This document shows positions 3,868-19,541 of a DNA stretch of 32,000 nt, one piece after another. Origin of the DNA: Cylindrospermopsis raciborskii Cr2010. GTDB lineage: Bacteria; Cyanobacteriota; Cyanobacteriia; Cyanobacteriales; Nostocaceae. The notes beneath the pieces are model-generated. The model was not told the DNA's origin. It was given only the letters and a program-made list of their open reading frames with translations, and searched no databases. The stretch spans positions 420,001 through 452,000 of the forward strand of contig NZ_CP065936.1 in assembly GCF_003367075.2 (NCBI RefSeq), written 5' to 3'. The position numbers and the translations under genes were made by a program. Each line of letters starts with the position of its first letter. Position 1 is the first letter of the stretch.

Positions 3868-5235
3868 TCATTTTATTTTTTGTTTCAATCGGTACAAAAT
3901 AGTATTTTTTTCCACCTGAGTCAAAATTTCCTCAATTACAGTATTAGCACCCAACCTTCCCCAGGTGCAGCCATTTTCTAAATATACTTGTGCGGCTTTT
4001 CCTACAGCATAAGCACCATAAGAAGCCACACCGGACTGAGCCAGGGCACCACCAGCAAAAGTAGTAATGTTTATAGAACCTTCACCAGCTACTGCTGCTG
4101 CACTTTTACCCATGCCTAGAACTAAATTGCTAGCTATTTCTGCAAGTAATAGACCACCAGAGCTCAAGAGGATAGTTTTTAATAACCTAGTTGCTTCATA
4201 GCTAGTCATAGGGAGAGAGTATAATCTAGCCAAAGAACGAATTAAAGCCAAATCAGTAATTAGACCACCAATAACATCTAAAAAACCAATGGGATTTAGA
4301 GCAATAGCTAAGGCCTTATATTTACAGAATCGCCAAATCAACGCCTCCGCTTCTTGTTGACGAAAATACAAAGTTTTTTCCGCTATAATTGCTTCCGATT
4401 CCCTAGCTTGTACCAGTGCATTCAAAGCCAAAAGCGATCGCCCTTCTCGATTTAGTATATTCAGAATAGTTTGCTTTAGCTCTTGCACTTGAGGTTTGGG
4501 AGTTTCCCATTCATAACTTATCCTACCATCTGCATATTCCACCCTCACCTCCATAGGTGCAGGTTCAGCGGACACCATCACAATTTCATCTGGTAATAAT
4601 GGATCACTTTCCTGATCACCCGTAGCTGCTCCTAAAACTTGTAAATTGTGATAAATTGTGCTTTTATCCGTATCTGGATACAAATCTATTTTATTGAACA
4701 CTAAAATCAGAGGTTTTTGAGCTTGTCGTAATTCTAGTAAAGCTTGGTACTCTGTTCTAGTTATATCTCCGGATACCACGAACAGAATTAAATCAGCTTG
4801 TTGTGCCACAGTGCGAGCCATTTCTCCCCGAACTTCCCCATTGATTTCATCCAAACCAGGAGTATCAATTAATTCAACACACACCTTAGTACCCGATTGC
4901 CAACGGAGGGAGCGGGGCCATTGAGTGACACCATTAAGAGGTCCTGTTTCCAGGATTTTTTCCCCCAGGAGGGAATTTAACACAGCGGACTTACCACGAC
5001 TGACCAGACCAAAAGCAGCTATTTTGATCAGATTTGAGTCCAGCTTGTGCAGAGTAGCATTGAGGATTTCCATTTGAGGTTTAATCAAACTTGCCAAATC
5101 TGGTCTAGACGACAAGTGTCCTGACTTACGAAGATAGGCATACCAAGATAGAGTTTGTTTGATGCTGGCACGAGCGCGATTTAGATGGGTTTCTTGGGAA
5201 ACTACTCGCGACTGAAATTCCTGCATTGTGGACAA
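3868..5235 (-). CDS. GTP-binding protein with hydrophobic C-terminal domain (DUF697-like)
   Basis: The G1 motif is GLVSRGKSAVLNSL, G3 is DTPG and G4 is NKID. The C-terminal third is Gly/Ala-rich and hydrophobic. Confidence 0.8.
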   Translation of the reverse strand: MSTMQEFQSRVVSQETHLNRARASIKQTLSWYAYLRKSGHLSSRPDLASLIKPQMEILNATLHKLDSNLIKIAAFGLVSRGKSAVLNSLLGEKILETGPLNGVTQWPRSLRWQSGTKVCVELIDTPGLDEINGEVRGEMARTVAQQADLILFVVSGDITRTEYQALLELRQAQKPLILVFNKIDLYPDTDKSTIYHNLQVLGAATGDQESDPLLPDEIVMVSAEPAPMEVRVEYADGRISYEWETPKPQVQELKQTILNILNREGRSLLALNALVQARESEAIIAEKTLYFRQQEAEALIWRFCKYKALAIALNPIGFLDVIGGLITDLALIRSLARLYSLPMTSYEATRLLKTILLSSGGLLLAEIASNLVLGMGKSAAAVAGEGSINITTFAGGALAQSGVASYGAYAVGKAAQVYLENGCTWGRLGANTVIEEILTQVEKNTILYRLKQKIK

Positions 5236-5325
5236 TTTTAATAGGTGACCAAATAAGTTTAGTTTATCATGTACGACAAAATCAGTCGGTTAAAAACAGT
5301 CTCCAGGTAGGGGTTAATTCAACCA

Positions 5326-5466
5326 ATTATTTAAGTGTAATGCGGATGTGTTTGTGGCTGGGGACTTATTTTGGTATCCAGTGAAGGGTAGTAACAAAAT
5401 TAAACTAGCTCCCGATACCATGGTGGTGTTTGGGAGACCCAAGGGACACCGGGGGTCTTATCGACA
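5326..5466 (+). pseudogene. Internal fragment of a Uma2-family nuclease gene (seventh, decayed copy)
   Basis: About 140 bp are near-identical to 8073-8213 of copy 1 (coding LFKCNADVFVAGDLFWYPVKGSNKIKLAPDTMVVFGRPKGHRGSYRQ). At 5466/5467 it is fused directly to the sequence that normally follows the Uma2 stop codon. Confidence 0.8.
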
Positions 5467-5676
5467 ATACCCCCGTGAGAAGGGTTTTCTCAACCTGAGA
5501 TTTTTCTCTACTTAAAGCAGTACGAAGTAACATGGGAGTTTGGAACTGATATTGACACCACGCTCAATGCCCATTTTTGGCAATAGCGATCGCAAACTGC
5601 ATTGCATAACTAAAATAAACAGAATTAATGTTATAAAAAATGGCTTAAAGAAATGTAGACTAAGTGCCATATCCCC

Positions 5677-5860
5677 TTGACTTATGCAAGAAATATGATA
5701 TTATTCAGACGGTGAGGTAATTAATAGCCTCGCGTGGAAATAAAATATAAGTCAAACCATAAGGTGCAGATCTTTGACGGTCTACATGATCTCAGTTCGT
5801 GCCAACCAGACTCACCCACCCAAGTAACTACAAGAGTCGAGTGGTAAGGATTCTCTTACC
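5677..5860 (+). ncRNA. R element copy R1: promoter plus candidate structured small RNA (unassigned family)
   Basis: TTGACT (5677-5682), a 16-nt spacer, then TATTAT. The following ~140 nt has no ORF longer than 13 codons. Predicted helices are GGTGC 5763-5767 with GTGCC 5799-5803, and GACTC with GAGTC. A terminal hairpin pairs GGTAAG with CTTACC (5843-5860). Confidence 0.4.
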
Positions 5861-5948
5861 CCAGCCTAAAAACCTCTTGAAATATATTCAGGTAGCATAA
5901 CCACTCTGGAAGATTGCCTTGACCAATATCTTTTAACCAAGAGCGATC
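5858..5948 (+). repeat. hicB-tail module (last 43 bp of hicB plus 48 bp downstream), present five times
   Basis: The same ~91 bp (accccagcctaaaaacctcttgaaatatattcaggtagcataaccactctggaagattgccttgaccaatatcttttaaccaagagcgatc) occurs at 5858-5948, 6491-6581 (the native hicB end), 9196-9286, 13204-13294 and 15813-15903. Confidence 0.85.
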
Positions 5949-6102
5949 ACTCTTCTAAACAAAACCCTGAGAAAAAGCAAGCCTCATACTGCTTTTGTGA
6001 GTGGTGATCGCATTTAGCAAAGGGAGAATCATCAAACTGGTCTCTGATTGTACTGCATCTTTGTGAAACCCGCTATATATTTATTTAATAACTTTCAATT
6101 GA

Positions 6103-6309
6103 ATGCCTAAAAAAATTCGAGAACTAAAGGCAATGTTGTTAAAAGCCGGGTTTATCCAACGGACTGGTAAAGGTAGTCACACAATCTGGATTCACGAAAA
6201 AATGCCAGATATGCCAATAACAATTGCAGGTAAGGATGGTGACGATGCTAAAATCTATTTAGAGAAACAAGTTAAACAAAGACTCGCAAGACTAGAAGAA
6301 TTGCAATGA
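6103..6309 (+). CDS. hicA: Type II toxin-antitoxin system HicA-family toxin
   Basis: KIRELKAMLLKAGF...GKGSHTIWIH matches the HicA/YcfA mRNA-interferase pattern. There is a 4-bp ATGA overlap with the next ORF. Confidence 0.75.
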   Translation: MPKKIRELKAMLLKAGFIQRTGKGSHTIWIHEKMPDMPITIAGKDGDDAKIYLEKQVKQRLARLEELQ

Positions 6310-6533
6310 ATTCACATTACAGTATGATTATTTTCTGGTCTCAAGAGGATAACTGCTATGTAGTCCACCTCCCTGACTTCCCTTTTCAAGACATCCACAC
6401 CCACGGGAATACTTATGAGGAAGCAGCCAAACATGGTCAGCAAGTGATTGACAGTTATCTTCAGCTTTATCAAGAAAATAACCAACCTCTACCCCAGCCT
6501 AAAAACCTCTTGAAATATATTCAGGTAGCATAA
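6306..6533 (+). CDS. hicB: Type II toxin-antitoxin system HicB-family antitoxin
   Basis: YSMIIFWSQEDNCYVVHLPDFP...THGNTYEEAAKHGQQVIDSYL matches the HicB/UPF0150 N-terminal domain pattern. It is translationally coupled to hicA. Confidence 0.75.
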   Translation: MNSHYSMIIFWSQEDNCYVVHLPDFPFQDIHTHGNTYEEAAKHGQQVIDSYLQLYQENNQPLPQPKNLLKYIQVA

Positions 6534-6644
6534 CCACTCTGGAAGATTGCCTTGACCAATATCTTTTAACCAAGAGCGATCGCCATCAGTTCAAGCGCGA
6601 TATCACCAACACCGACAGCCTAGCTGCTGAGTTTGTCGCCTTTG

Positions 6645-6731
6645 ACAATTGCAGGTAAAGATGGTAAAGATGCTAAAATCTATTTAGAAAAACAACTTAA
6701 ACAAAGACTCGCAAGACTAGAAGAATTGCAA
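6645..6731 (+). pseudogene. 3' fragment of a diverged hicA paralog
   Basis: These 87 bp are homologous to hicA 6220-6306 (ITIAGKDG.DAKIYLEKQ.KQRLARLEELQ) with several substitutions and no start codon. Identical copies lie at 13358-13444 and 15967-16053. Confidence 0.7.
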
Positions 6732-6755
6732 GGAACTGTTGCAAAATGCAGAAAC

Positions 6756-6913
6756 GGAGCCATATCCCGTTGGTCTGTTGGGTTTCGTGCCTCAACCCAA
6801 CCTACGATTACCCACGACAAAACCAGTCGGGTACGGAGCCATATCCCGTTGGTCTGTTGGGTTTCGTGCCTCAACCCAACCTACGATTACCCACGACAAA
6901 ACCAGTCGGGTAA
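6756..6913. repeat. 79-bp tandem repeat x2, each unit carrying a GTTGGGTT-N9-AACCCAAC hairpin
   Basis: The units start at 6756 and 6835 (ggagccatatcccgttggtctgttgggtttcgtgcctcaacccaacctacgattacccacgacaaaaccagtcgggta). The hairpin stem of the first unit pairs 6777-6784 with 6794-6801. Confidence 0.85.
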
Positions 6914-7299
6914 GGGTTGGACATCACTATCCTTCCCTCCCCTAAGAACCGGACTTGACAGTTTCCTCCGGCTCAAGCCTTACTTCAAGCCTTTCAACTT
7001 GGGTTTTGAGTGTGCCTGTTTATGAGAGACTGAGTGCAAATACTTCAGGTTTTCTATGTCGTCCAGACCACCTTTTGCAACAGGTACTATGTGGTGGGTT
7101 TCGATTCCATCTCCATTGAGTAGTGGTTCACCGCAGATGGGACATTTTGCTCTCGACCGTTTAGATTTTTGACTTCCACCCCTAGTCTCTTACAGAGAGC
7201 TAACACTTTCTTTTTCGAGGGTTTGATAAGGAATTCCGTCACGGGTAATTCATTGGCGATCTCCCACAGGGAGTGCTTCCCAATCCCCCTTAACCGCAC
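6769..7299 (-). mobile_element. Degenerate, internally deleted group II-intron-derived insertion (copy 1 of 3)
   Basis: The minus strand starts GTGCGG at 7299-7294. It carries a frameshifted intron-protein C-terminus with an HNH motif and a domain-V-like hairpin, GAGCCGGA...TCCGGTTC (6974-6946). Its borders are defined by comparison with the uninterrupted site at 5661-5682. Confidence 0.55.
6980..7299 (-). pseudogene. Remnant of a group II intron-encoded protein C-terminus (HNH endonuclease domain), frameshifted
   Basis: The frame ending at stop 6982-6980 reads KSKRSRAKCPICGEPLLNGDGIETHHIVPVAKGGLDDIENLKYLHSVSHKQAH, a CxxC...HH...GG...N...H HNH pattern. Track ORF 7087-7299 is in a different frame. 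No RT domain is present. Confidence 0.6.
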
Positions 7300-7302
7300 C
7301 CC

Positions 7303-7474
7303 TTGACTTATAGGAAAAACCTGATATTATATTTTCACGGGTTAAATAACCCTGCCACATACGAATAAAATATCAAGTAAACAATAAGGTGCTGAACTTT
7401 GACGGTCTACATGATCTCGGTTCGTACCAACCAGACTCATCCACCCAAGTAACTACAAGAGTCGAGTGGTAAGG
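7303..7474 (+). ncRNA. R element copy R3a: promoter plus candidate structured small RNA
   Basis: TTGACT (7303-7308), a 16-nt spacer, then TATTAT. Predicted structures are a GGGTT-aaat-AACCC hairpin, a helix pairing GGTGC 7388-7392 with GTACC 7424-7428 extended by GAAC/GTTC, an inner GGTC-tacat-GATC hairpin, and GACTC paired with GAGTC. Confidence 0.4.
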
Positions 7475-7494
7475 GGTCTTTGTCTCAATTTTAG

Positions 7495-7620
7495 ACTACA
7501 ATCAATAATTACCCACAGTTTGAGCAGCGGTTAAGTTTGATAGAGACTATACTAGCAAATAAGTTCCCAGACTTGACCAAGGAGATGATTATGCAGTTGC
7601 AAGTCTCGTTTTTACCAAGA
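7495..7620 (+). pseudogene. C-terminal fragment of a Rpn/YhgA-like (DUF4351-type) protein gene
   Basis: The translation FEQRLSLIETILANKFPDLTKEMIMQL resembles, from memory, the conserved LIETILVYKFPxLSREEI tail of cyanobacterial Rpn-family/DUF4351 proteins. There is no upstream coding body. Copies lie at 14208-14333 and 16817-16942. Confidence 0.4.
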
Positions 7621-7882
7621 GATTCGGATGGAGGCCCTACAAGAGGGAGAACGGCGTGGGAGAGAAAAGGGAAGAGAGGAAGGACAGCGAAGGAAAAACC
7701 TGAGTCCCAATTTGACCTTGTTACAGTTGTTAGGAACGAATGAGGAGGAGAGTGGGAAGATAGGTAACGACAGGAGAATTTCTACCGACGGTTTTTTATG
7801 AATTTCCAGGTACATGGGGGTTTGGGACTGATAAGAAGCTATGTAATAGTAAATTAAACCGATTGAGTCAATACCAAAGTGA

Positions 7883-8791
7883 ATGGGAGGTATAGATATG
7901 GTGAGGCAAGTTCCACCCAAAACTCAACTGGGGGTGATAAAATCTAACATTAATCAGGTTGGGGAGACAATCGTCCCTGAAATTGTCTACCCAGAAAGTG
8001 ATGGTGAACCCATGGCGGATAATACTAGGCAATTCACATGGATTGTCAAAATCAAGGAGAATTTAGAAATACTATTTAAGTGTAATGCGGATGTGTTTGT
8101 AGCTGGGGACTTATTTTGGTATCCAGTGAAGGGTAGTAACAAAATTAAACTAGCTCCCGATACCATGGTGGTGTTTGGGAGACCCAAGGGACACCGGGGG
8201 TCTTATCGACAGTGGGAGGAGGATAATATTCCTCCCCAGGTGGTGTTTGAAATTTTATCTCCTGGTAATAGTCAAGATGAAATGGACAAAAAAAAGCTGT
8301 TTTATCTGAAACATGGAGTAGAAGAGTATTATGTGTATGACCCAGATAGAATTAGTCTAGAAGTATCTATTAGGGAAAACAATTCATTTAAAGAGATTAA
8401 GGATTTTAGTGTTTGGACTAGTCCAAGACTGAATGTACGGTTTGATATGACGGGAGATGAATTAGTCATCTACTATCAAGATGGTGGTAGGTTTCTTAGT
8501 CCTGTAGAGTTGAGCAATTATGCAGAACAAGAAAATCAACGTGCAGAACGGGAAAGACTGCTTAAAGAACAAGAAAGATTTCTGAAAGAGCAGGAAACTC
8601 AACGTGCAGAACGGGAAAAACTGCTTAAAGAGCAGGAAACTCAACGTGCAGAACGGGAAAAACTGCTTAAAGAGCAGGAAACTCAGCGTGCAGAACAGGA
8701 AAGACTGCTTAAAGAGCAGGAACAACTAAAGTATCAAACCTTACTAGCACAATTAAAAGCAAAGGGTATTGATATCAGTACACTCGAATAA
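7883..8791 (+). CDS. Uma2-family (DUF820) PD-(D/E)XK endonuclease with C-terminal coiled-coil repeats, copy 1 (302 aa)
   Basis: Motifs are YPESDGEPMADNTRQF, APDTMVVFG, EILSPGN..DE.DKKKLFY..GVEEYYVYDP, then a tail with four QRAE modules and LLAQLKAKGIDISTLE. A GGAGG lies 7 nt before the second ATG (7898), so the true start may be 15 nt later. Confidence 0.85.
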   Translation: MGGIDMVRQVPPKTQLGVIKSNINQVGETIVPEIVYPESDGEPMADNTRQFTWIVKIKENLEILFKCNADVFVAGDLFWYPVKGSNKIKLAPDTMVVFGRPKGHRGSYRQWEEDNIPPQVVFEILSPGNSQDEMDKKKLFYLKHGVEEYYVYDPDRISLEVSIRENNSFKEIKDFSVWTSPRLNVRFDMTGDELVIYYQDGGRFLSPVELSNYAEQENQRAERERLLKEQERFLKEQETQRAEREKLLKEQETQRAEREKLLKEQETQRAEQERLLKEQEQLKYQTLLAQLKAKGIDISTLE

Positions 8792-9019
8792 ACTATTACC
8801 TGGACCGGAATACCCCCGTGAGAAGGGTTTTCTCAACCTGAGATTTTTCTCTACTTAAAGCAGTACGAAGTAACATGGGAGTTTGGAACTGATATTGACA
8901 CCATGCTCAATGCCCATTTTTGGCAATAGCGATCGCAAACTGCATTGCATAACTAAAATAAACAGAATTAATGTTATAAAAAATGGCTTAAAGAAATGTA
9001 GACTAAGTGCCATATCCCC

Positions 9020-9198
9020 TTGACTTATGCAAGAAATATGATATTATCAGACAGGTAATTAATAGCCTCGTGTGGAAATAAAATATAAGTCAAACCATAA
9101 GGTGCAGAGCTTTGACGGTCTACATGATCTCAGTTCGTGCCAACCAGACTCACCCACCCAAGTAACTACAAGAGTCGAGTGGTAAGGATTCTCTTACC
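9020..9198 (+). ncRNA. R element copy R2 (R1-type variant)
   Basis: It has the same promoter (TTGACT 9020-9025) and body as R1, with small indels in the 5' hairpin region. It ends in the GGTAAG-gattct-CTTACC hairpin where it is fused to the hicB-tail module. Confidence 0.4.
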
Positions 9199-9390
9199 CC
9201 AGCCTAAAAACCTCTTGAAATATATTCAGGTAGCATAACCACTCTGGAAGATTGCCTTGACCAATATCTTTTAACCAAGAGCGATCGCCCGACTGCTAAC
9301 CAATAATCACCCGTAAGGTGACGAGTTGCCTTTTACTTTAAAGAAGCCATGTTATAGTAAGTTAAACCGATTGAGTCAATACCAAAGTGA

Positions 9391-10341
9391 ATGGGAGGTA
9401 TAGATATGGTGAGGCAAGTTCCACCAAAAACTCAACTGGGGGTGGTAAAATCTAACATTAATCAGGTTGGGGAGACGATCGCGTCTGAAATTGTCTACCC
9501 AGAAAGTGATGGTGAACCCATGGCGGATAATACTAGGCAATTCACATGGATTGTCAAAATAAAGGAGAATTTAGAAATACTATTTAAGTATAATGCGGAT
9601 GTGTTTGTGGCTGGGGACTTATTTTGGTATCCAGTGAAGGGTAGTAACAAAATTAAACTAGCTCCCGATACCATGGTGGTGTTTGGGAGACCCAAGGGAC
9701 ACCGGGGGTCTTATCGACAGTGGGAAGAAGATAATATTCCTCCCCAGGTGGTGTTTGAAATTTTATCTCCTGGTAATAGTCAAGATGAAATGGACAAAAA
9801 AAAGCTGTTTTATCTGAAACATGGAGTAGAAGAGTATTATGTGTATGACCCAGATAGGATTAGTCTAGAAGTATCTATTAGAGAAAATAATTCATTTAAA
9901 GAGATTAAGGATTTTAGTGTTTGGACTAGTCCAAGACTGAATGTACGGTTTGATATGACGGGAGATGAATTAGTCATCTACTATCCAGATGGTGGTAGGT
10001 TTCTTAGTCCTGTAGAGTTGAGCAATTATGCAGAACAAGAAAATCAACGTGCAGAACGGGAAAAACTGCTTAAAGAGCAGGAAACTCAGCGTGCAGAACG
10101 GGAAAAACTGCTTAAAGAGCAGGAAACTCAGCGTGCAGAACGGGAAAAACTGCTTAAAGAGCAGGAAACTCAACGTGCAGAACGGGAAAAACTGCTTAAA
10201 GAGCAGGAAACTCAACGTGCAGAACAGGAAAGACTGCTTAAAGAACAGGAAAAATTTCTGAAAGAGCAGGAACAACTAAAATATCAAACCTTACTAGCAC
10301 AATTAAAAGCTAAGGGTATTGATATCAGCACACTCGAATAA
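9391..10341 (+). CDS. Uma2-family endonuclease, copy 2 (316 aa)
   Basis: It has the same domain motifs as copy 1 with the N-terminal variant VVKSNINQVGETIASE and KYNAD. The tail has five QRAE modules. Confidence 0.85.
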   Translation: MGGIDMVRQVPPKTQLGVVKSNINQVGETIASEIVYPESDGEPMADNTRQFTWIVKIKENLEILFKYNADVFVAGDLFWYPVKGSNKIKLAPDTMVVFGRPKGHRGSYRQWEEDNIPPQVVFEILSPGNSQDEMDKKKLFYLKHGVEEYYVYDPDRISLEVSIRENNSFKEIKDFSVWTSPRLNVRFDMTGDELVIYYPDGGRFLSPVELSNYAEQENQRAEREKLLKEQETQRAEREKLLKEQETQRAEREKLLKEQETQRAEREKLLKEQETQRAEQERLLKEQEKFLKEQEQLKYQTLLAQLKAKGIDISTLE

Positions 10342-10380
10342 ACTATTACCTGGACCAGAATACCCCCGTGAGAAGGGTTT

Positions 10381-10398
10381 TCTCAACCTGAGATTTTT
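10381..10398 (+). terminator. Weak hairpin plus T-run after the Uma2 stop
   Basis: TCTCA-acc-TGAGA is followed by TTTTT. It recurs after copies 1, 2, 3 and 6 and after the 5326 fragment. It is deleted after copies 4 and 5. Confidence 0.25.
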
Positions 10399-10440
10399 CT
10401 CTACTTAAAACAGTACGAAGTAAGTCGTCCATGGCAAGGG

Positions 10441-10470
10441 TTGCTGATTTTGCCCAGTCAGGGTTATAAT
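10441..10470 (+). promoter_or_regulatory. Candidate promoter P_D (TTGCTG-N18-TATAAT) between Uma2 copies
   Basis: TTGCTG is at 10441-10446 and a perfect TATAAT at 10465-10470, about 240 nt upstream of the next Uma2 start. The same module lies at 11759-11788, 12971-13000, 15580-15609 and 18242-18271. Confidence 0.4.
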
Positions 10471-10708
10471 GTGGGTGCCAAAAGTAAGGCGGCTTTATCT
10501 AACGGATTTGAGGGAAAGGCAAAACCTGAGTCCCAATTTGACCTTGTTACAGTTGTTAGGAACGAATGAGGAGGAGAGTGGGAAGATAGGTAACGACAGG
10601 AGAATTTCTACCGACGGTTTTTTCTGAATTTCCAGGTACATGGGGGTTTGGGACTGATAAGAAGCTATGTAATAGTAAATTAAACCGATTGAGTCAATAC
10701 CAAAGTGA

Positions 10709-11659
10709 ATGGGAGGTATAGATATGGTGAGGCAAGTTCCACCAAAAACTCAACTGGGGGTGGTAAAATCCAATAAAAATCAGCTTGGGGAGACGATCGC
10801 GTCTGAAATTGTCTACCCAGAAAGTGATGGTGAACCCATGGCGGATAATACTAGGCAATTCACATGGATTGTCAAAATAAAGGAGAATTTAGAAATACTA
10901 TTTAAGTATAATGCGGATGTGTTTGTAGCTGGGGACTTATTTTGGTATCCAGTGAAGGGTAGTAACAAAATTAAACTAGCTCCCGATACCATGGTGGTGT
11001 TTGGGAGACCCAAGGCACACCGGGGGTCTTATCGACAGTGGGAAGAAGATAATATTCCTCCCCAGGTGGTGTTTGAAATTTTATCTCCTGGTAATAGTCA
11101 AGATGAAATGGACAAAAAAAAGCTGTTTTATCTGAAACATGGAGTAGAAGAGTATTATGTGTATGACCCAGATAGGATTAGTCTAGAAGTATCTATTAGA
11201 GAAAATAATTCATTTAAAGAGATTAAGGATTTTAGTGTTTGGACTAGTCCAAGACTGAATGTACGGTTTGATATGACGGGAGATGAATTAGTCATCTACT
11301 ATCCAGATGGTGGTAGGTTTCTTAGTCCTGTAGAGTTGAGCAATTATGCAGAACAAGAAAATCAACGTGCAGAACGGGAAACTCAGCGTGCAGAACGGGA
11401 AAAACTGCTTAAAGAGCAGGAAACTCAGCGTGCAGAACGGGAAAAACTGCTTAAAGAGCAGGAAACTCAACGTGCAGAACGGGAAAAACTGCTTAAAGAA
11501 CAGGAAAAATTTCTGAAAGAGCAGGAAACTCAACGTGCAGAACAGGAAAGACTGCTTAAAGAACAGGAAAAATTTCTGAAAGAGCAGGAACAACTAAAAT
11601 ATCAAACCTTACTAGCACAATTAAAAGCTAAGGGTATTGATATCAGCACACTCGAATAA
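10709..11659 (+). CDS. Uma2-family endonuclease, copy 3 (316 aa)
   Basis: It carries the variants KSNKNQLGETIASE and KAHRGS. The tail has five QRAE modules in a different arrangement, including a truncated QRAERET unit. Confidence 0.85.
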   Translation: MGGIDMVRQVPPKTQLGVVKSNKNQLGETIASEIVYPESDGEPMADNTRQFTWIVKIKENLEILFKYNADVFVAGDLFWYPVKGSNKIKLAPDTMVVFGRPKAHRGSYRQWEEDNIPPQVVFEILSPGNSQDEMDKKKLFYLKHGVEEYYVYDPDRISLEVSIRENNSFKEIKDFSVWTSPRLNVRFDMTGDELVIYYPDGGRFLSPVELSNYAEQENQRAERETQRAEREKLLKEQETQRAEREKLLKEQETQRAEREKLLKEQEKFLKEQETQRAEQERLLKEQEKFLKEQEQLKYQTLLAQLKAKGIDISTLE

Positions 11660-12026
11660 ACTATTACCTGGACCAGAATACCCCCGTGAGAAGGGTTTTC
11701 TCAACCTGAGATTTTTCTCTACTTAAAACAGTACGAAGTAAGTCGTCCATGGCAAGGGTTGCTGATTTTGCCCAGTCAGGGTTATAATGTGGGTGCCAAA
11801 AGTAAGGCGGCTTTATCTAACGGATTTGAGGGAAAGGCAAAACCTGAGTCCCAATTTGACCTTGTTACAGTTGTTAGGAACGAATGAGGAGGAGAGTGGG
11901 AAGATAGGTAACGACAGGAGAATTTCTACCGACGGTTTTTTCTGAATTTCCAGGTACATGGGGGTTTGGGACTGATAAGAAGCTATGTAATAGTAAATTA
12001 AACCGATTGAGTCAATACCAAAGTGA

Positions 12027-12935
12027 ATGGGAGGTATAGATATGGTGAGGCAAGTTCCACCAAAAACTCAACTGGGGGTGGTAAAATCCAATAAAAATCA
12101 GCTTGGGGAGACGATCGCGTCTGAAATTGTCTACCCAGAAAGTGATGGTGAACCCATGGCGGATAATACTAGGCAATTCACATGGATTGTCAAAATAAAG
12201 GAGAATTTAGAAATACTATTTAAGTATAATGCGGATGTGTTTGTAGCTGGGGACTTATTTTGGTATCCAGTGAAGGGTAGTAACAAAATTAAACTAGCTC
12301 CCGATACCATGGTGGTGTTTGGGAGACCCAAGGCACACCGGGGGTCTTATCGACAGTGGGAAGAAGATAATATTCCTCCCCAGGTGGTGTTTGAAATTTT
12401 ATCTCCTGGTAATAGTCAAGATGAAATGGACAAAAAAAAGCTGTTTTATCTGAAACATGGAGTAGAAGAGTATTATGTGTATGACCCAGATAGGATTAGT
12501 CTAGAAGTATCTATTAGGGAAAACAATTCATTTAAAGAGATTAAGGATTTTAGTGTTTGGACTAGTCCAAGACTGAATGTACGGTTTGATATGACGGGAG
12601 ATGAATTAGTCATCTATTATCCAGATGGTGGTAGGTTTCTTAGTCCTGTAGAGTTGAGCAATTATGCAGAACAAGAAAATCAACGTGCAGAACGGGAAAA
12701 ACTGCTTAAAGAGCAGGAAACTCAGCGTGCAGAACGGGAAAAACTGCTTAAAGAGCAGGAAACTCAACGTGCAGAACGGGAAAAACTGCTTAAAGAACAA
12801 GAAAGATTTCTGAAAGAGCAGGAAACTCAACGTGCAGAACAGGAAAGACTGCTTAAAGAGCAGGAACAACTAAAGTATCAAACCTTACTAGCACAATTAA
12901 AAGCTAAGGGTATTGATATCAGCACACTCGAATAA
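12027..12935 (+). CDS. Uma2-family endonuclease, copy 4 (302 aa), chimeric
   Basis: The 5' part matches copy 3 through 12494. From 12495 onward the sequence matches copy 5. Confidence 0.85.
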   Translation: MGGIDMVRQVPPKTQLGVVKSNKNQLGETIASEIVYPESDGEPMADNTRQFTWIVKIKENLEILFKYNADVFVAGDLFWYPVKGSNKIKLAPDTMVVFGRPKAHRGSYRQWEEDNIPPQVVFEILSPGNSQDEMDKKKLFYLKHGVEEYYVYDPDRISLEVSIRENNSFKEIKDFSVWTSPRLNVRFDMTGDELVIYYPDGGRFLSPVELSNYAEQENQRAEREKLLKEQETQRAEREKLLKEQETQRAEREKLLKEQERFLKEQETQRAEQERLLKEQEQLKYQTLLAQLKAKGIDISTLE

Positions 12936-13072
12936 ACTATTACCTGGACCGGATACCCCCGTGAGAAGGGTTGCTGATTTTGCCCAGTCAGGGTTATAAT
13001 GTGGGTGCAAAGTTACCTTCCTTAAATTAGAAAACTGGATTTCATCCTGATGCAAAAGTTTTATTAAATTTA

Positions 13073-13245
13073 GTAGTCCACCTCCCTGACTTCCCTTTTC
13101 AAGACATCCACACCCACGGGAATACTTATGAGGAAGCAGCCAAACATGGTCAGCAAGTGATTGACAGTTATCTTCAGCTTTATCAAGAAAATAACCAACC
13201 TCTACCCCAGCCTAAAAACCTCTTGAAATATATTCAGGTAGCATA
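13073..13245 (+). pseudogene. 3' fragment of hicB (173 bp, no start codon)
   Basis: It is identical to hicB 6360-6533 at a constant offset of 6713. The block 6360-7882 is re-used at 13073-14635 and 15682-17244, apart from a 41-bp indel. Confidence 0.8.
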
Positions 13246-13468
13246 ACCACTCTGGAAGATTGCCTTGACCAATATCTTTTAACCAAGAGCGATCGCCATC
13301 AGTTCAAGCGCGATATCACCAACACCGACAGCCTAGCTGCTGAGTTTGTCGCCTTTGACAATTGCAGGTAAAGATGGTAAAGATGCTAAAATCTATTTAG
13401 AAAAACAACTTAAACAAAGACTCGCAAGACTAGAAGAATTGCAAGGAACTGTTGCAAAATGCAGAAAC

Positions 13469-13626
13469 GGAGCCATATCCCGTTGGTCTGTTGGGTTTCG
13501 TGCCTCAACCCAACCTACGATTACCCACGACAAAACCAGTCGGGTACGGAGCCATATCCCGTTGGTCTGTTGGGTTTCGTGCCTCAACCCAACCTACGAT
13601 TACCCACGACAAAACCAGTCGGGTAA
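13469..13626. repeat. 79-bp tandem repeat x2 (second locus)
   Basis: Same sequence as 6756-6913, at offset 6713. Confidence 0.85.
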
Positions 13627-14012
13627 GGGTTGGACATCACTATCCTTCCCTCCCCTAAGAACCGGACTTGACAGTTTCCTCCGGCTCAAGCCTTACTTCA
13701 AGCCTTTCAACTTGGGTTTTGAGTGTGCCTGTTTATGAGAGACTGAGTGCAAATACTTCAGGTTTTCTATGTCGTCCAGACCACCTTTTGCAACAGGTAC
13801 TATGTGGTGGGTTTCGATTCCATCTCCATTGAGTAGTGGTTCACCGCAGATGGGACATTTTGCTCTCGACCGTTTAGATTTTTGACTTCCACCCCTAGTC
13901 TCTTACAGAGAGCTAACACTTTCTTTTTCGAGGGTTTGATAAGGAATTCCGTCACGGGTAATTCATTGGCGATCTCCCACAGGGAGTGCTTCCCAATCCC
14001 CCTTAACCGCAC
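13482..14012 (-). mobile_element. Group II-intron-derived insertion (copy 2 of 3)
   Basis: Identical to 6769-7299 at offset 6713. Confidence 0.55.
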
Positions 14013-14015
14013 CCC

Positions 14016-14187
14016 TTGACTTATAGGAAAAACCTGATATTATATTTTCACGGGTTAAATAACCCTGCCACATACGAATAAAATATCAAGTAAACAATAA
14101 GGTGCTGAACTTTGACGGTCTACATGATCTCGGTTCGTACCAACCAGACTCATCCACCCAAGTAACTACAAGAGTCGAGTGGTAAGG
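14016..14187 (+). ncRNA. R element copy R3b
   Basis: Identical to 7303-7474 (TTGACT at 14016-14021). Confidence 0.4.
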
Positions 14188-14635
14188 GGTCTTTGTCTCA
14201 ATTTTAGACTACAATCAATAATTACCCACAGTTTGAGCAGCGGTTAAGTTTGATAGAGACTATACTAGCAAATAAGTTCCCAGACTTGACCAAGGAGATG
14301 ATTATGCAGTTGCAAGTCTCGTTTTTACCAAGAGATTCGGATGGAGGCCCTACAAGAGGGAGAACGGCGTGGGAGAGAAAAAGGAAGAGAGGAAAGACAG
14401 CGAACGAAGAGTAACGCGGCTTTATCTAACGGATTTGAGGGAAAGGCAAAACCTGAGTCCCAATTTGACCTTGTTACAGTTGTTAGGAACGAATGAGGAG
14501 GAGAGTGGGAAGATAGGTAACGACAGGAGAATTTCTACCGACGGTTTTTTCTGAATTTCCAGGTACATGGGGGTTTGGGACTGATAAGAAGCTATGTAAT
14601 AGTAAATTAAACCGATTGAGTCAATACCAAAGTGA

Positions 14636-15544
14636 ATGGGAGGTATAGATATGGTGAGGCAAGTTCCACCCAAAACTCAACTGGGGGTGATAAAATCTAA
14701 CATTAATCAGGTTGGGGAGACAATCGTCCCTGAAATTGTCTACCCAGAAAGTGATGGTGAACCCATGGCGGATAATACTAGGCAATTCACATGGATTGTC
14801 AAAATCAAGGAGAATTTAGAAATACTATTTAAGTGTAATGCGGATGTGTTTGTAGCTGGGGACTTATTTTGGTATCCAGTGAAGGGTAGTAACAAAATTA
14901 AACTAGCTCCCGATACCATGGTGGTGTTTGGGAGACCCAAGGGACACCGGGGGTCTTATCGACAGTGGGAGGAGGATAATATTCCTCCCCAGGTGGTGTT
15001 TGAAATTTTATCTCCTGGTAATACTCAAGATGAAATGGACAAAAAAAAGCTGTTTTATCTGAAACATGGAGTAGAAGAGTATTATGTGTATGACCCAGAT
15101 AGAATTAGTCTAGAAGTATCTATTAGGGAAAACAATTCATTTAAAGAGATTAAGGATTTTAGTGTTTGGACTAGTCCAAGACTGAATGTACGGTTTGATA
15201 TGACGGGAGATGAATTAGTCATCTATTATCCAGATGGTGGTAGGTTTCTTAGTCCTGTAGAGTTGAGCAATTATGCAGAACAAGAAAATCAACGTGCAGA
15301 ACGGGAAAAACTGCTTAAAGAGCAGGAAACTCAGCGTGCAGAACGGGAAAAACTGCTTAAAGAGCAGGAAACTCAACGTGCAGAACGGGAAAAACTGCTT
15401 AAAGAACAAGAAAGATTTCTGAAAGAGCAGGAAACTCAACGTGCAGAACAGGAAAGACTGCTTAAAGAGCAGGAACAACTAAAGTATCAAACCTTACTAG
15501 CACAATTAAAAGCTAAGGGTATTGATATCAGCACACTCGAATAA
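14636..15544 (+). CDS. Uma2-family endonuclease, copy 5 (302 aa)
   Basis: The N-terminal haplotype matches copy 1 (VIKSNINQVGETIVPE, KCNAD) with NTQDE in place of NSQDE. The tail is identical to copy 4. Confidence 0.85.
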   Translation: MGGIDMVRQVPPKTQLGVIKSNINQVGETIVPEIVYPESDGEPMADNTRQFTWIVKIKENLEILFKCNADVFVAGDLFWYPVKGSNKIKLAPDTMVVFGRPKGHRGSYRQWEEDNIPPQVVFEILSPGNTQDEMDKKKLFYLKHGVEEYYVYDPDRISLEVSIRENNSFKEIKDFSVWTSPRLNVRFDMTGDELVIYYPDGGRFLSPVELSNYAEQENQRAEREKLLKEQETQRAEREKLLKEQETQRAEREKLLKEQERFLKEQETQRAEQERLLKEQEQLKYQTLLAQLKAKGIDISTLE

Positions 15545-15681
15545 ACTATTACCTGGACCGGATACCCCCGTGAGAAGGGTTGCTGATTTTGCCCAGTCAG
15601 GGTTATAATGTGGGTGCAAAGTTACCTTCCTTAAATTAGAAAACTGGATTTCATCCTGATGCAAAAGTTTTATTAAATTTA

Positions 15682-15854
15682 GTAGTCCACCTCCCTGACT
15701 TCCCTTTTCAAGACATCCACACCCACGGGAATACTTATGAGGAAGCAGCCAAACATGGTCAGCAAGTGATTGACAGTTATCTTCAGCTTTATCAAGAAAA
15801 TAACCAACCTCTACCCCAGCCTAAAAACCTCTTGAAATATATTCAGGTAGCATA
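15682..15854 (+). pseudogene. 3' fragment of hicB (second truncated copy)
   Basis: Identical to 13073-13245 at offset 2609. Confidence 0.8.
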
Positions 15855-16077
15855 ACCACTCTGGAAGATTGCCTTGACCAATATCTTTTAACCAAGAGCG
15901 ATCGCCATCAGTTCAAGCGCGATATCACCAACACCGACAGCCTAGCTGCTGAGTTTGTCGCCTTTGACAATTGCAGGTAAAGATGGTAAAGATGCTAAAA
16001 TCTATTTAGAAAAACAACTTAAACAAAGACTCGCAAGACTAGAAGAATTGCAAGGAACTGTTGCAAAATGCAGAAAC

Positions 16078-16235
16078 GGAGCCATATCCCGTTGGTCTGT
16101 TGGGTTTCGTGCCTCAACCCAACCTACGATTACCCACGACAAAACCAGTCGGGTACGGAGCCATATCCCGTTGGTCTGTTGGGTTTCGTGCCTCAACCCA
16201 ACCTACGATTACCCACGACAAAACCAGTCGGGTAA
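16078..16235. repeat. 79-bp tandem repeat x2 (third locus)
   Basis: Same sequence as 6756-6913. Confidence 0.85.
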
Positions 16236-16621
16236 GGGTTGGACATCACTATCCTTCCCTCCCCTAAGAACCGGACTTGACAGTTTCCTCCGGCTCAAGC
16301 CTTACTTCAAGCCTTTCAACTTGGGTTTTGAGTGTGCCTGTTTATGAGAGACTGAGTGCAAATACTTCAGGTTTTCTATGTCGTCCAGACCACCTTTTGC
16401 AACAGGTACTATGTGGTGGGTTTCGATTCCATCTCCATTGAGTAGTGGTTCACCGCAGATGGGACATTTTGCTCTCGACCGTTTAGATTTTTGACTTCCA
16501 CCCCTAGTCTCTTACAGAGAGCTAACACTTTCTTTTTCGAGGGTTTGATAAGGAATTCCGTCACGGGTAATTCATTGGCGATCTCCCACAGGGAGTGCTT
16601 CCCAATCCCCCTTAACCGCAC
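16091..16621 (-). mobile_element. Group II-intron-derived insertion (copy 3 of 3)
   Basis: Identical to 13482-14012 at offset 2609. Confidence 0.55.
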
Positions 16622-16624
16622 CCC

Positions 16625-16796
16625 TTGACTTATAGGAAAAACCTGATATTATATTTTCACGGGTTAAATAACCCTGCCACATACGAATAAAATATCAAGT
16701 AAACAATAAGGTGCTGAACTTTGACGGTCTACATGATCTCGGTTCGTACCAACCAGACTCATCCACCCAAGTAACTACAAGAGTCGAGTGGTAAGG
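16625..16796 (+). ncRNA. R element copy R3c
   Basis: Identical to 14016-14187. Confidence 0.4.
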
Positions 16797-17244
16797 GGTC
16801 TTTGTCTCAATTTTAGACTACAATCAATAATTACCCACAGTTTGAGCAGCGGTTAAGTTTGATAGAGACTATACTAGCAAATAAGTTCCCAGACTTGACC
16901 AAGGAGATGATTATGCAGTTGCAAGTCTCGTTTTTACCAAGAGATTCGGATGGAGGCCCTACAAGAGGGAGAACGGCGTGGGAGAGAAAAAGGAAGAGAG
17001 GAAAGACAGCGAACGAAGAGTAACGCGGCTTTATCTAACGGATTTGAGGGAAAGGCAAAACCTGAGTCCCAATTTGACCTTGTTACAGTTGTTAGGAACG
17101 AATGAGGAGGAGAGTGGGAAGATAGGTAACGACAGGAGAATTTCTACCGACGGTTTTTTCTGAATTTCCAGGTACATGGGGGTTTGGGACTGATAAGAAG
17201 CTATGTAATAGTAAATTAAACCGATTGAGTCAATACCAAAGTGA

Positions 17245-18132
17245 ATGGGAGGTATAGATATGGTGAGGCAAGTTCCACCCAAAACTCAACTGGGGGTGAT
17301 AAAATCTAACATTAATCAGGTTGGGGAGACAATCGTCCCTGAAATTGTCTACCCAGAAAGTGATGGTGAACCCATGGCGGATAATACTAGGCAATTCACA
17401 TGGATTGTCAAAATCAAGGAGAATTTAGAAATACTATTTAAGTGTAATGCGGATGTGTTTGTAGCTGGGGACTTATTTTGGTATCCAGTGAAGGGTAGTA
17501 ACAAAATTAAACTAGCTCCCGATACCATGGTGGTGTTTGGGAGACCCAAGGGACACCGGGGGTCTTATCGACAGTGGGAGGAGGATAATATTCCTCCCCA
17601 GGTGGTGTTTGAAATTTTATCTCCTGGTAATACTCAAGATGAAATGGACAAAAAAAAGCTGTTTTATCTGAAACATGGAGTAGAAGAGTATTATGTGTAT
17701 GACCCAGATAGAATTAGTTTAGAAGTATCTATTAGGGAAAATAATTCATTTAAAGAGATTAAGGATTTTAGTGTTTGGACTAGTCCAAGAATGAATGTAC
17801 GGTTTGATATGATGGGAGATGAATTAGTCATCTATTATCCAGATGGTGGTAGGTTTCTTAGTCCTGTAGAGTTGAGCAATTATGCAGAACAAGAAAATCA
17901 ACGTGCAGAACGGGAAAGACTGCTTAAAGAACAAGAAAGATTTCTGAAAGAGCAGGAAACTCGGCGTGCAGAAAAGGAAAGACTGCTTAAAGAACAAGAA
18001 AGATTTCTGAAAGAGCAAGAAACTCAACGTGCAGAACGGGAAAAACTGCTTAGAGAGCAGGAACAACTAAAGTATCAAACCTTACTAGCACAATTAAAAG
18101 CTAAGGGTATTGATATCAGCACACTCGAATAA
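17245..18132 (+). CDS. Uma2-family endonuclease, copy 6 (295 aa), most diverged
   Basis: It is identical to copy 5 up to 17718, then diverges (RMNVRFDMMGDE). The tail has three modules, with RRAEKERLL and LLREQEQ variants. Confidence 0.85.
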   Translation: MGGIDMVRQVPPKTQLGVIKSNINQVGETIVPEIVYPESDGEPMADNTRQFTWIVKIKENLEILFKCNADVFVAGDLFWYPVKGSNKIKLAPDTMVVFGRPKGHRGSYRQWEEDNIPPQVVFEILSPGNTQDEMDKKKLFYLKHGVEEYYVYDPDRISLEVSIRENNSFKEIKDFSVWTSPRMNVRFDMMGDELVIYYPDGGRFLSPVELSNYAEQENQRAERERLLKEQERFLKEQETRRAEKERLLKEQERFLKEQETQRAEREKLLREQEQLKYQTLLAQLKAKGIDISTLE

Positions 18133-18438
18133 ACTACTACCTGGACCGGAATACCCCCGTGAGAAGGGTCTTCTCAACCTGAGATTTTTCTCTACTTAAA
18201 GCAGTACGAAGTAAGTCGTCCGTGGCAAGGTTTGCTGATCTTGCCCAGTCAGGGTTATAATGTGGGTGCGGAGTTACCTTTAGATGTGTAATCGAACGAT
18301 ATAGCTGAATCTCCACCCTTAAATTAGAAAACTGGATTTCATCCTGATGCAAAAGTTTTATTCAATTTACCAGAGGTTACTAAAGAATGTAGCGAGATCC
18401 CTATGGGAGTGCTTCGCAATCGCCCTGAACCGCACTCC

Positions 18439-18610
18439 TTGACTTATACGAAAAACCTGATATTATGTTTTCACGGGTTAAATAACCCCGCCACATACGA
18501 ATAAAATATCAAGTAAACAATAAGGTACTGAGCTTTGACGGTCTACATGATCTCGGTTCGTACCAACCAGACTCGTAAACCCAAGTAGCTACAAGAGTCG
18601 ATTAGTAAGG
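18439..18610 (+). ncRNA. R element copy R4 (diverged), 128 nt upstream of the polysaccharide cluster on the same strand
   Basis: TTGACT (18439-18444), a 16-nt spacer, then TATTAT. The helix GGTAC 18524-18528 with GTACC 18560-18564 is fully Watson-Crick here. The 3' part is diverged (cgtaaaccc, gattag). Confidence 0.35.
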
Positions 18611-18737
18611 ATTCTCTGTCTCAATTTTAGCCTAGCTGATCGCCCTATCCATCCAATTAATTCCCAATTTATATATTATATATAAATAAAACTAACATAA
18701 GCCTACCCTAAAACAATAGTTCACAAGAAATCCTAAT

Positions 18738-19541
18738 ATGGTCCACGCAACAAAACCTATAATGTTAAAAGCAAGGCTCCTATACACAGCAAAAATCCTG
18801 TTTCATGTTTTGGGAGAGTTTGGATACAACCCAATTAAAATGGTAGTTTCCATCTTAGAATTACCACTTTATATTTATCAACTCACTTCATTTTCGATAA
18901 GAAGCAAAAGTCCAGTTAAGATTCGATTGTTTCCCTATTTAACTGATAGACGTGATTTTGCTGGTAGTATCAGTCGCCATTATTTCCATCAAGATCTATG
19001 GGCAGCTAGAAAGGTCTACGAGAATAAACCAGAGAATCACATTGATGTAGGATCTCGAATTGATGGTTTTGTAGCGCATTTACTCACGTTTCGTACGGTC
19101 GAAGTGCTAGATGTGAGAAAAATGACCTCTTCTGTGAAGGGAATGACCTTTAGGCAAGTTAATCTGATGGAATTTCAAAAAGTGCCTGGCAGCGTATGTG
19201 ATTCACTTTCTTGTCTTCATGCCCTGGAACACTTTGGTTTAGGTCGCTACGGGGATCCGATTGATCCCGAGGGACATATTAAAGGACTTAAGTCTTTAAC
19301 TAAGATGCTAAAATCAGGTGGGACGTTGTTGTTATCAGTTCCCACAGGAAAAGAAAGAATAGAGTTCAACGGACACCGCATTTTTTCCGTAACCACTATA
19401 CTAAATTTAACTACTAGTGACTATGACTTAGTGTCATTTTCATACATAGATGATACAAACACTTTATATGAGAACGTTGATACATCATTTGTTCCCACCA
19501 TGTTGTATGGGTGTGGACTATACGAGTTGAAAAAGAAGTAG
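18738..19541 (+). CDS. SAM-dependent methyltransferase-like protein (DUF268-type)
   Basis: HIDVGSRIDGFVAHL and SLSCLHALEHFGLGRYGDPIDPEG...LKSGGTLLLSVP resemble the DUF268/class I methyltransferase fold pattern. Confidence 0.6.
   Translation: MVHATKPIMLKARLLYTAKILFHVLGEFGYNPIKMVVSILELPLYIYQLTSFSIRSKSPVKIRLFPYLTDRRDFAGSISRHYFHQDLWAARKVYENKPENHIDVGSRIDGFVAHLLTFRTVEVLDVRKMTSSVKGMTFRQVNLMEFQKVPGSVCDSLSCLHALEHFGLGRYGDPIDPEGHIKGLKSLTKMLKSGGTLLLSVPTGKERIEFNGHRIFSVTTILNLTTSDYDLVSFSYIDDTNTLYENVDTSFVPTMLYGCGLYELKKK

Follow-up and report, generated by a model that had tools for sequence, protein, structure and literature searches.

What is the non-coding element that recurs six times, always on the + strand, among nuclease and toxin-antitoxin genes of Cylindrospermopsis strain Cr2010? 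The element, here called R, was noticed in a preliminary description of 32,000 nucleotides of this genome (contig NZ_CP065936.1, positions 420,001 to 452,000, forward strand; the window below means this whole stretch). On balance, R is probably the gene of a structured non-coding RNA, ~160-230 nt long and confined to the Cylindrospermopsis/Raphidiopsis lineage. The clearest sign is a hairpin kept intact between two otherwise strongly diverged forms of the element.

Alignment, nhmmer and covariance-model search recovered the six + strand copies, R1 to R6, where they had first been placed (Table 1), and no R fragments in the window beyond these. As independent evidence, however, six copies count for less than the number implies, since only three variants exist: R1 resembles R3, R2 is 100% identical to R4 and R5 because these three lie in duplicated units of 2609/6713 bp, and R6 is 90% identical to R2. 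Most window copies derive from local duplication within a variable gene island. The element is also longer than the ~172 bp of the preliminary description, which let homology end at GTAAGG. R2, R4, R5 and R6 all run through a tail ending in GTCTCAATTTTAG that is conserved in homologues elsewhere, and the diverged copy with GATTAGTAAGG, which had been named R4, is actually the sixth copy (18439). R1 and R3 are severed after GGATTCTCT and joined to copies of the hicB 3' end (5857-5948 and 9195-9286, respectively), with ATTCTCT common to R6, R1 and R3.

The predicted structure centers on a long hairpin, P2, preceded by a 5' hairpin (P1) and followed by a shorter one (P3). P2 with its inner GGUC-UACAU-GAUC hairpin is the predicted minimum-energy fold of every R-type copy, that is, of the form found in the window, and every transition in the P2 stems keeps the pair, with one broken cell only. 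Across 16 distinct sequences, standard pairs occupy 95% of cells, compared to 28-43% when the partners are slid. P1 was reported to be kept despite sequence differences and is indeed predicted in all four distinct window sequences, as well as in 10 of 12 variants with unrelated sequences; as we read the folded sequences, one pair of P1 is G-C, G.U or A-U depending on the copy. The G.U pairs work only on the + strand and minus-strand folds are no better than shuffles, which points to the + strand as the folded one.

C. raciborskii strains hold a strongly diverged form of R at the syntenic site, ~270 nt from the start of a DUF697 GTPase gene and in divergent orientation to it. When this form was compared to the R type, using a one-base register shift that had to be placed by hand, 24 of 24 core stem bases were kept while the ~100 other aligned positions were 36-46% identical. 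The shared unit is a 30-nt bulged hairpin with the stems GAGCU-UU-GA-N-GGUC and GAUC-UC-AGUUC around a loop of N5; the loop itself differs (UACAU in the R type, CAGUG or CGGUG in C. raciborskii), as does the bulge. Since this divergence far exceeds the ~12% by which orthologous intergenic DNA of the two species differs, the two forms are best seen as old alleles or paralogues. A search of 426 kb of fetched DNA for the hairpin pattern, allowing up to 3 substitutions, gave 26 occurrences, every one within an R copy. The 30-nt hairpin is under strong constraint.

The helices flanking this hairpin behave differently. At its base P2 pairs GGUGC with GUACC in the R type; C. raciborskii has GAAG/CUUC there, and its hairpin built on that base has 15 of 15 P2 pairs standard. 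P3 is GACUC/GAGUC in the R type and, as first described, invariant in the window; it reads GACUU/GAGUC in L001 and AACUU/GAGUU in L028 (L numbers denote fetched loci), and CAACU/AGUUG, read by eye, in C. raciborskii. The change from G-C to A-U between L001 and L028 is two-sided. The flanking helices thus seem to have been rebuilt from other sequence in the C. raciborskii form, and because that form keeps the hairpin exactly while rebuilding its neighbors, the idea of a structured RNA gains support. The stems of the hairpin are invariant and its loop sequence is free; together with two G.U pairs that are conserved, an internal UU loop and a bulge of one base, this makes a site of sequence-specific protein binding, or of processing, more probable than a base-pairing seed.

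Each window copy opens with TTGACT-N16-TATTAT, as the preliminary description had it, and the promoter scan found these boxes preceded by TG (an extended -10) with 10 of 12 consensus matches, making the six the best + strand promoter matches in 5000-19500. A predicted promoter of its own, recognized by consensus match, therefore lies directly upstream of R, and R would be transcribed from it. Nearly every R-type copy retains this consensus, the exceptions being L001/L028 and a 5'-truncated copy in L035. The candidate C. raciborskii promoters, TTGTAT-N17-TATAAA and TTGCAT-N17-TAGTAA, were read by eye and are not listed by the consensus scan.

The response regulator RpaB binds the HLR1 motif, (G/T)TTACA(T/A)(T/A)-N2-(G/T)TTACA(T/A)(T/A), which activates (the low-light class) when centered at -66 to -45 and represses at -38 to +23 (PMC6525291). 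Complete R copies share TTGTAAAGAAATGTAAAT upstream of the -35 box, and its complement matches the HLR1 consensus. Exact HLR1 matches across the fetched loci number four (three distinct), all just upstream of R promoters, where we estimate fewer than 0.1 by chance. In L029/L034, L031 and L032 the box is centered near -60, within the activating range. Complete R copies may thus be controlled by RpaB and expressed in low light. The box region is degenerate in R1 and R3, other window copies carry different upstream DNA, and C. raciborskii has only a pair of inverted half-sites. At their 3' side, the syntenic C. raciborskii copies carry a hairpin and U-tract 40-70 nt past the core, giving an RNA of ~230 nt, and C. 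curvispora has a terminator-like site ~175 nt past the core.

R neither codes for a recognizable protein nor belongs to a known family, and on both points the preliminary description held. The longest + strand open reading frame in the window copies is 13 codons. None of 4227 Rfam families matches R even at E<=10, the whole window gives 0 matches to Rfam release 15 at gathering thresholds, and complete copies in L036 and L035 return only noise (10-18 bits against thresholds of 46-88). ARAGORN found nothing tRNA- or tmRNA-like. Duplex-fold target prediction against the starts of the Uma2, hicA and methyltransferase genes returned implausibly long duplexes and no usable signal, and a literature search found nothing relevant on small RNAs in the Cylindrospermopsis/Raphidiopsis clade or on Uma2 function.

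Several observations weigh against R being an RNA gene, and most of them concern covariation and folding. The variable helix singled out in the preliminary description does appear in the predicted folds as GGUGC/GUGCC, GGUGC/GUACC and GGUAC/GUACC, but its changes are one-sided wobble changes (U-A/U.G, G.U/A-U) and not compensatory as claimed. On the 16 distinct sequences, with kinship ignored, covariation is modest: two-sided changes occur at only 2 pairs, matched in 41 of 500 shuffles, and the covariation score of 0.104 compared to 0.088 is matched in 7 of 500 shuffles, which is formally weak. Given all 26 copies, RNAalifold retains nothing but the invariant portion of P2, in which covariation is impossible. 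Folds of single sequences have modest z-scores (-0.8 to -2.5), variants disagree in how the 3' part folds, and the minimum-energy fold of the C. raciborskii form lacks P2, as the tail pairs with the P2 3' strand; in that form P2 forms first during chain growth. The comparison of the two forms, as noted, depends on the hand-placed shift. At the DNA level, the window R copies have no HLR1 box within 3 mismatches and the window has no excess of matches, the terminator scan found no intrinsic terminator after any window copy or in L034, and one C. curvispora copy lacks the promoter, so some copies are decaying. R is also confined to one genus-level clade with related copies, so that shared ancestry inflates conservation within each form. 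We conclude that covariation in R is suggestive but not decisive, that P2 is well supported, that P1 and P3 are plausible, and that any switch is unproven. A terminator/antiterminator switch, either P3 against a P4 hairpin or the tail against P2, was rejected, as its pairings occur in single sequences and are not conserved.

A complete R, as it occurs in sister strains and species, has an HLR1 box near -60, a sigma-70 promoter with extended -10, P1, a single-stranded A-rich linker, P2, P3 and a pyrimidine-rich tail, with an intrinsic terminator in addition in C. raciborskii. If R is an RNA gene, the ancestral copy would have been transcribed divergently from the DUF697 GTPase gene, on the margin of a hypervariable island that comprises an O-antigen-type polysaccharide operon, Uma2 nuclease genes and toxin-antitoxin genes, and recombination and segmental duplication inside the island would have multiplied it. 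The six window copies would then be derived ones that kept the promoter and P1-P3 and lost the HLR1 box and terminator. Because the window copies lack a terminator, their transcripts should enter the downstream + strand genes and could run on into hicAB, Uma2 and the polysaccharide operon, making these copies promoter-plus-leader modules.

The distribution of R is consistent with a single lineage. The covariance model found 25 full copies in 238 kb, from the window species, C. curvispora, a cyanobacterial metagenome-assembled genome (MAG) and C. raciborskii, and nothing else. By GTPase identity the window is closest to C. curvispora (96%), followed by C. raciborskii and Raphidiopsis brookii (94%). 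In R. brookii D9, Sphaerospermopsis and Anabaena the island is absent and the covariance model finds no R. An exact 18-mer scan of one genome per species, with a pattern unable to detect C. raciborskii-type variants, gave 16 matches, which we estimate to be about the chance number; the sole real one was L001, from an unclassified cyanobacterial MAG (LVE1205-1). A degenerate pattern led to seven metagenome contigs with R. Of these, L029 and L034 belong to the window species, as their kinase and GTPase proteins are 99% identical to those of the window, and R1 corresponds by synteny to their R copy. Synteny of L029, L034 and L035 likewise identifies R1 as the counterpart of the GTPase-adjacent copy in other strains. 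Other metagenome contigs have R beside hyp genes, a Fic gene or an HNH gene, and one has three cores, two of them in tandem. C. curvispora shares the GTPase-DUF29-Uma2-hicAB array and has three R copies in it, and C. raciborskii strains hold second R copies elsewhere in the island. Searches for a plasmid or phage source gave no blastn match, and pattern scans of viral contigs gave one unrelated GC-rich match and otherwise none. R is specific to the Cylindrospermopsis/Raphidiopsis lineage within these searches, whose collection scans used exact R-type patterns, so the real distribution may be wider.

Table 1. Copies of R, parts of R2 and neighboring features (window coordinates).
Feature	Position	Strand	Basis or remark
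R1	5677..5856	+	promoter, P1, P2 (one U.U mismatch) and P3 present
R2	7303..7494	+	covariance-model match 7356-7496, 143 bits
R2 promoter parts	-35 7303-7308; TG 7322-7323; -10 7325-7330; predicted start ~7337	+	promoter scan
R2 5' hairpin P1	7339-7352	+	fold prediction
R2 A-rich linker	7353-7387	+	sequence
R2 long hairpin P2	7388-7428, invariant core 7394-7423	+	fold prediction
R2 hairpin P3	7434-7438/7459-7463	+	fold prediction
R2 pyrimidine-rich tail, end GTCTCAATTTTAG	7482-7494	+	sequence
R3	9020..9194	+	R1 variant with 5-nt deletion in P1
R4	14016..14207	+	equals R2, in duplicated unit
R5	16625..16816	+	equals R2, in duplicated unit
R6	18439..18630	+	90% identity to R2
Uma2-family nuclease gene	7883..8791	+	Pfam Uma2; 389 nt downstream of R2
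Further Uma2 genes	starts 9391, 10709, 12027, 14636, 17245	+	Pfam Uma2
hicA/hicB toxin-antitoxin pair	6103..6533	+	Pfam; downstream of R1
DUF29 gene 3'-end remnant	5556..5586	+	alignment with L029; DUF29 genes in L029, L035
Group II intron 3' remnant (domains V/VI and HNH tail of its protein)	6905..7299	-	Rfam RF00029, 36.7 bits

The copies sit in a co-directional array at 5226-18700 that contains six Uma2 genes, hicAB, hicA/hicB fragments, DUF29 gene remnants, a 79-nt perfect tandem and a minus-strand group II intron 3' end. Left of the array Pfam identified a pilin gene, an FHA-kinase gene and the DUF697 GTPase gene. To the right, a 13-kb polysaccharide biosynthesis operon begins 108 nt past R6 with a DUF268 methyltransferase gene (18738), and promoter and terminator scans found neither a second + strand promoter match nor a terminator between R6 and this gene. 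In the sister strain L017, R is placed ahead of the polysaccharide operon as R6 is, with a ~140-bp insertion between R and the first operon gene (L017 870-1010 compared to window 18660-18690). Metagenome contigs L018-L026, L046 and L048 end at R, 30-90 nt ahead of the DUF268 methyltransferase gene, and the R repeat causes assembly gaps for the species in public data.

The Uma2 genes of the window match the PADLOC candidate defense family PDC-S03 and are probably transcribed from R promoters. Their C-terminal coiled-coil regions contain 21/42/63-bp repeats in varying numbers, giving proteins of 295-316 aa (genes within 7883-18132), and C. curvispora holds a similar Uma2 array. A Uma2 gene fragment with an internal deletion (5226-5515) lies directly beside the GTPase gene start, a place taken in other strains by two DUF29 genes. 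In complete loci a DUF29 gene precedes R; besides the remnant ahead of R1, a second one lies ahead of R3, around 8894-8924.

The group II intron remnant, whose score falls just below the RF00029 threshold of 40 bits, abuts the upstream side of R2 and recurs ahead of R4 and R5 at 13618-14012 and 16227-16621; models of intron domains I-IV gave no match. R was rejected as a part of this intron, which lies on the opposite strand and ends at 7299, and copies elsewhere are intron-free. R2, R4 and R5 begin exactly where the HNH tail of the intron protein (CPICGEPLL...THHIVPVAKGG) is cut off. The perfect 79-nt tandem duplication adjoins the intron 3' end (6754-6912, 13467-13625, 16076-16234), and since its right part, ACCCACGACAAAACCAGTCGG, resembles sequence downstream of R in other strains, the layout suggests that the site of intron insertion was the flank downstream of an R element.

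Two small repeats also accompany R. A dispersed short repeat, GGGAGTGCTTCGCAATCGCCC, occurs singly or in runs around it (7268-7290, 18404-18426, L029 3930-4030, L032 upstream), and it is this repeat, not intron sequence, that forms the upstream flank of R2/R6-type copies. Some copies have, in the conserved stretch on their downstream side, an insert of ~65 nt that contains two hairpins (GTAAAACCAGTCGGTTGAAACCGACTTGAGCTTTGAGACCGGGAATTGATTCCCGGTCTCCCCCACAG): it is found in L029 (3750-3830), L032, L033 (1110-1190) and partly L030, and is missing from L001, L028 and L035. The GTAAAACCAGTCGGTTGAAACCGACTTGAGCTTTGAGACCGGGAATTGATTCCCGGTCTCCCCCACAG insert looks like a very small mobile repeat.

Among other explanations, the one that survives best is that R is a dispersed, recombination-prone repeat, selfish or like a miniature inverted-repeat transposable element, whose promoter is fortuitous or hitch-hiking and whose conservation reflects recent spread and gene conversion rather than a role as RNA. 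Copies at unrelated loci (hyp genes, Fic, HNH, a truncated DegT gene) fit this account, as do the many structural variants that break in R or at its edge, the contig with tandem core copies, and copies without promoter or 5' half. The 146-nt P2-to-tail core segment of R3 is moreover 100% identical to two C. curvispora copies, although core genes differ by 4-6%. On the other hand, no terminal inverted repeats or target-site duplications were evident by eye in the wide alignments, which no dedicated search supplemented, no transposase gene lies near, and 3' boundaries differ between copies. Recent spread also cannot explain 24 of 24 stem bases kept next to rebuilt helices in forms ~60% diverged, and the G.U pairs make the hairpin strand-specific. 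We consider the repeat explanation unlikely, though it has more in its favor than those that follow.

It is less likely still that R is a dedicated cis-acting leader, an attenuator or antiterminator of the genes that follow, whether the polysaccharide operon, by analogy to JUMPStart/ops and EAR, or Uma2. The window copies have no terminator and always have a same-strand gene behind them; R6 and the L017 copy are located 105-250 nt upstream of the polysaccharide operon, a C. raciborskii-type copy in L037 lies ~140 nt upstream of a flippase gene, and the L001 and L028 copies precede a sugar aminotransferase gene. In C. raciborskii, a terminator stands between R and Uma2, and the ability of the 3' tail to pair with the P2 3' strand is switch-like. 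However, L047 has the same operon with no R, and L045 has it with just the final ~60 nt of R; the operon can therefore do without R, and an obligatory polysaccharide-operon leader is ruled out. What follows the L001 copy is a pseudogene, elsewhere R is followed by small unrelated genes or by genes in convergent orientation, and the alternative pairings are not conserved between forms. Among the window operon genes before the last open reading frame (31230-31829), Pfam annotation shows no NusG-like domain. The L001 gene (7151-7624) is a DegT-type sugar aminotransferase gene that lacks its 5' end and is frameshifted, a pseudogene at a rearrangement junction.

The frequent neighborhood of R and Uma2 raises the idea that the two form a functional RNA-nuclease module, in which the RNA would restrain or direct the nuclease, laid out as promoter, structured RNA, leaky terminator and nuclease gene, amplified in a phage-defense/O-antigen island and light-switched via RpaB. 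We regard this bolder reading as very improbable. The related claim, that the nuclease encoded downstream, Uma2, has R RNA as its partner, either an antitoxin-like inhibitor (a type III layout with a leaky terminator) or a guide-like cofactor, seems very improbable too. At least six independent junction types put R 190-940 nt upstream of a same-strand Uma2 gene, including the diverged C. raciborskii form by a Uma2 only 30% identical to those of the window. The match of Uma2 to a candidate anti-phage family, the tandem core on one contig and the C. raciborskii terminator separating RNA from nuclease gene point the same way. Yet about half of the R copies have no Uma2 behind them, two window Uma2 genes have no R upstream, and in an island packed with Uma2 mere descent may account for the linkage. 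Uma2 genes occur widely among cyanobacteria, but these searches found R in the Cylindrospermopsis/Raphidiopsis clade alone. There are no short processed repeats and no ToxN-like protein, and the conserved part ends at varying 3' positions, unlike what a guide scaffold requires.

An insertion-sequence (IS) end, or the omega or bridge RNA of such an element, is a highly improbable identity for R. A structured conserved scaffold followed by variable flanks and the mobile-element-rich surroundings would suit it, and the imperfect, bulged hairpins recall those carried by IS200/IS605 ends. Against it, four R-bearing stretches gave no Rfam match at E<=10, and no transposase (TnpA included), TnpB, IscB or IS110 recombinase gene was found in the window or beside ~20 copies. 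R also has one hairpin per unit, not a left and right pair, and its boundaries vary. Finally, a small peptide (MISVRT...) read from an AUG in the hairpin loop can practically be dismissed: a 25-codon frame ending in LSQF-stop is read in L029 and L001 and the window copies remain in frame past their stop codon, but the frame is 13 codons in the window, stops at codon 8 in L033 and is frameshifted in L032a (both read from the sequences), all ten of ten codon differences between L029 and L001 are non-synonymous, the AUG is absent from the C. raciborskii loop (CAGUG), and there is no ribosome-binding site, so the reading frame is not conserved.

Hardly any regulatory RNAs have been described in Cylindrospermopsis and Raphidiopsis, cyanobacteria that form toxic blooms, and an unannotated family with a strong predicted promoter, an exact RpaB box in complete copies and an invariant hairpin is a concrete candidate for experiments. 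R stands at the boundary of an island of Uma2, toxin-antitoxin and surface-polysaccharide genes, the loci likeliest to shape phage resistance. It also marks break-points of island reshuffling between strains, which matters for strain-level variation and for assembly gaps. If R is only a repeat, its practical value would be limited to annotation.

R shares single features with several known systems. Omega RNAs of TnpB/IscB and IS110 bridge RNAs are likewise structured, 150-200 nt long, divided into conserved and variable parts and set in mobile-rich DNA, but R has no cognate protein gene, no Rfam match and no fixed scaffold/guide boundary, since its 3' boundaries fall after TCTCT, TCAA, TTTTAG or CTATT. 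The C. raciborskii order of promoter, non-coding RNA, terminator and nuclease gene recalls type III toxin-antitoxin RNAs (ToxI-like), from which R differs in having no short tandem repeats, no ToxN/AbiQ-type toxin, and many copies with no nuclease gene behind. Pneumococcal BOX and Neisseria Correia elements are promoter-carrying dispersed repeats, and like them R is modular, non-coding and multi-copy, may carry a promoter, forms stable RNA hairpins and has a tandem core; unlike them it showed no terminal inverted repeats or target duplications, and one of its hairpins is far more constrained. JUMPStart/ops and EAR are leader elements upstream of polysaccharide operons. In three lineages R, too, sets a hairpin element immediately ahead of a long polysaccharide operon, with cluster break-points directly after it, but the same operon lacks R in some strains, most R copies lie elsewhere, and no sequence or Rfam similarity connects them.

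With RpaB-controlled transcripts such as the photosystem I genes and PsrR1, complete R copies share an exact HLR1 direct repeat. The PsrR1 box lies over the start site, in the repressing position, whereas the R box lies near -60, in the activating position, on the opposite strand; the box is absent from the six window copies and reduced to inverted half-sites in C. raciborskii, so that the likeness holds for the family but not for the window copies. The closest likeness is to NsiR1 (PMC4030482), since R too would be a multi-copy Nostocales non-coding RNA gene with its own promoters, one orientation and local duplication. NsiR1 is 60 nt long, HetR-dependent, located in a tandem array near hetF and present in all heterocystous genomes, whereas R is ~160-230 nt long, neighbors the GTPase gene and the Uma2 island, has protein genes between its copies and is limited to one clade. 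R is not NsiR1, as length and neighborhood differ, but by analogy it would work most like a multi-copy small RNA family with its own promoters, of which NsiR1 is the example.

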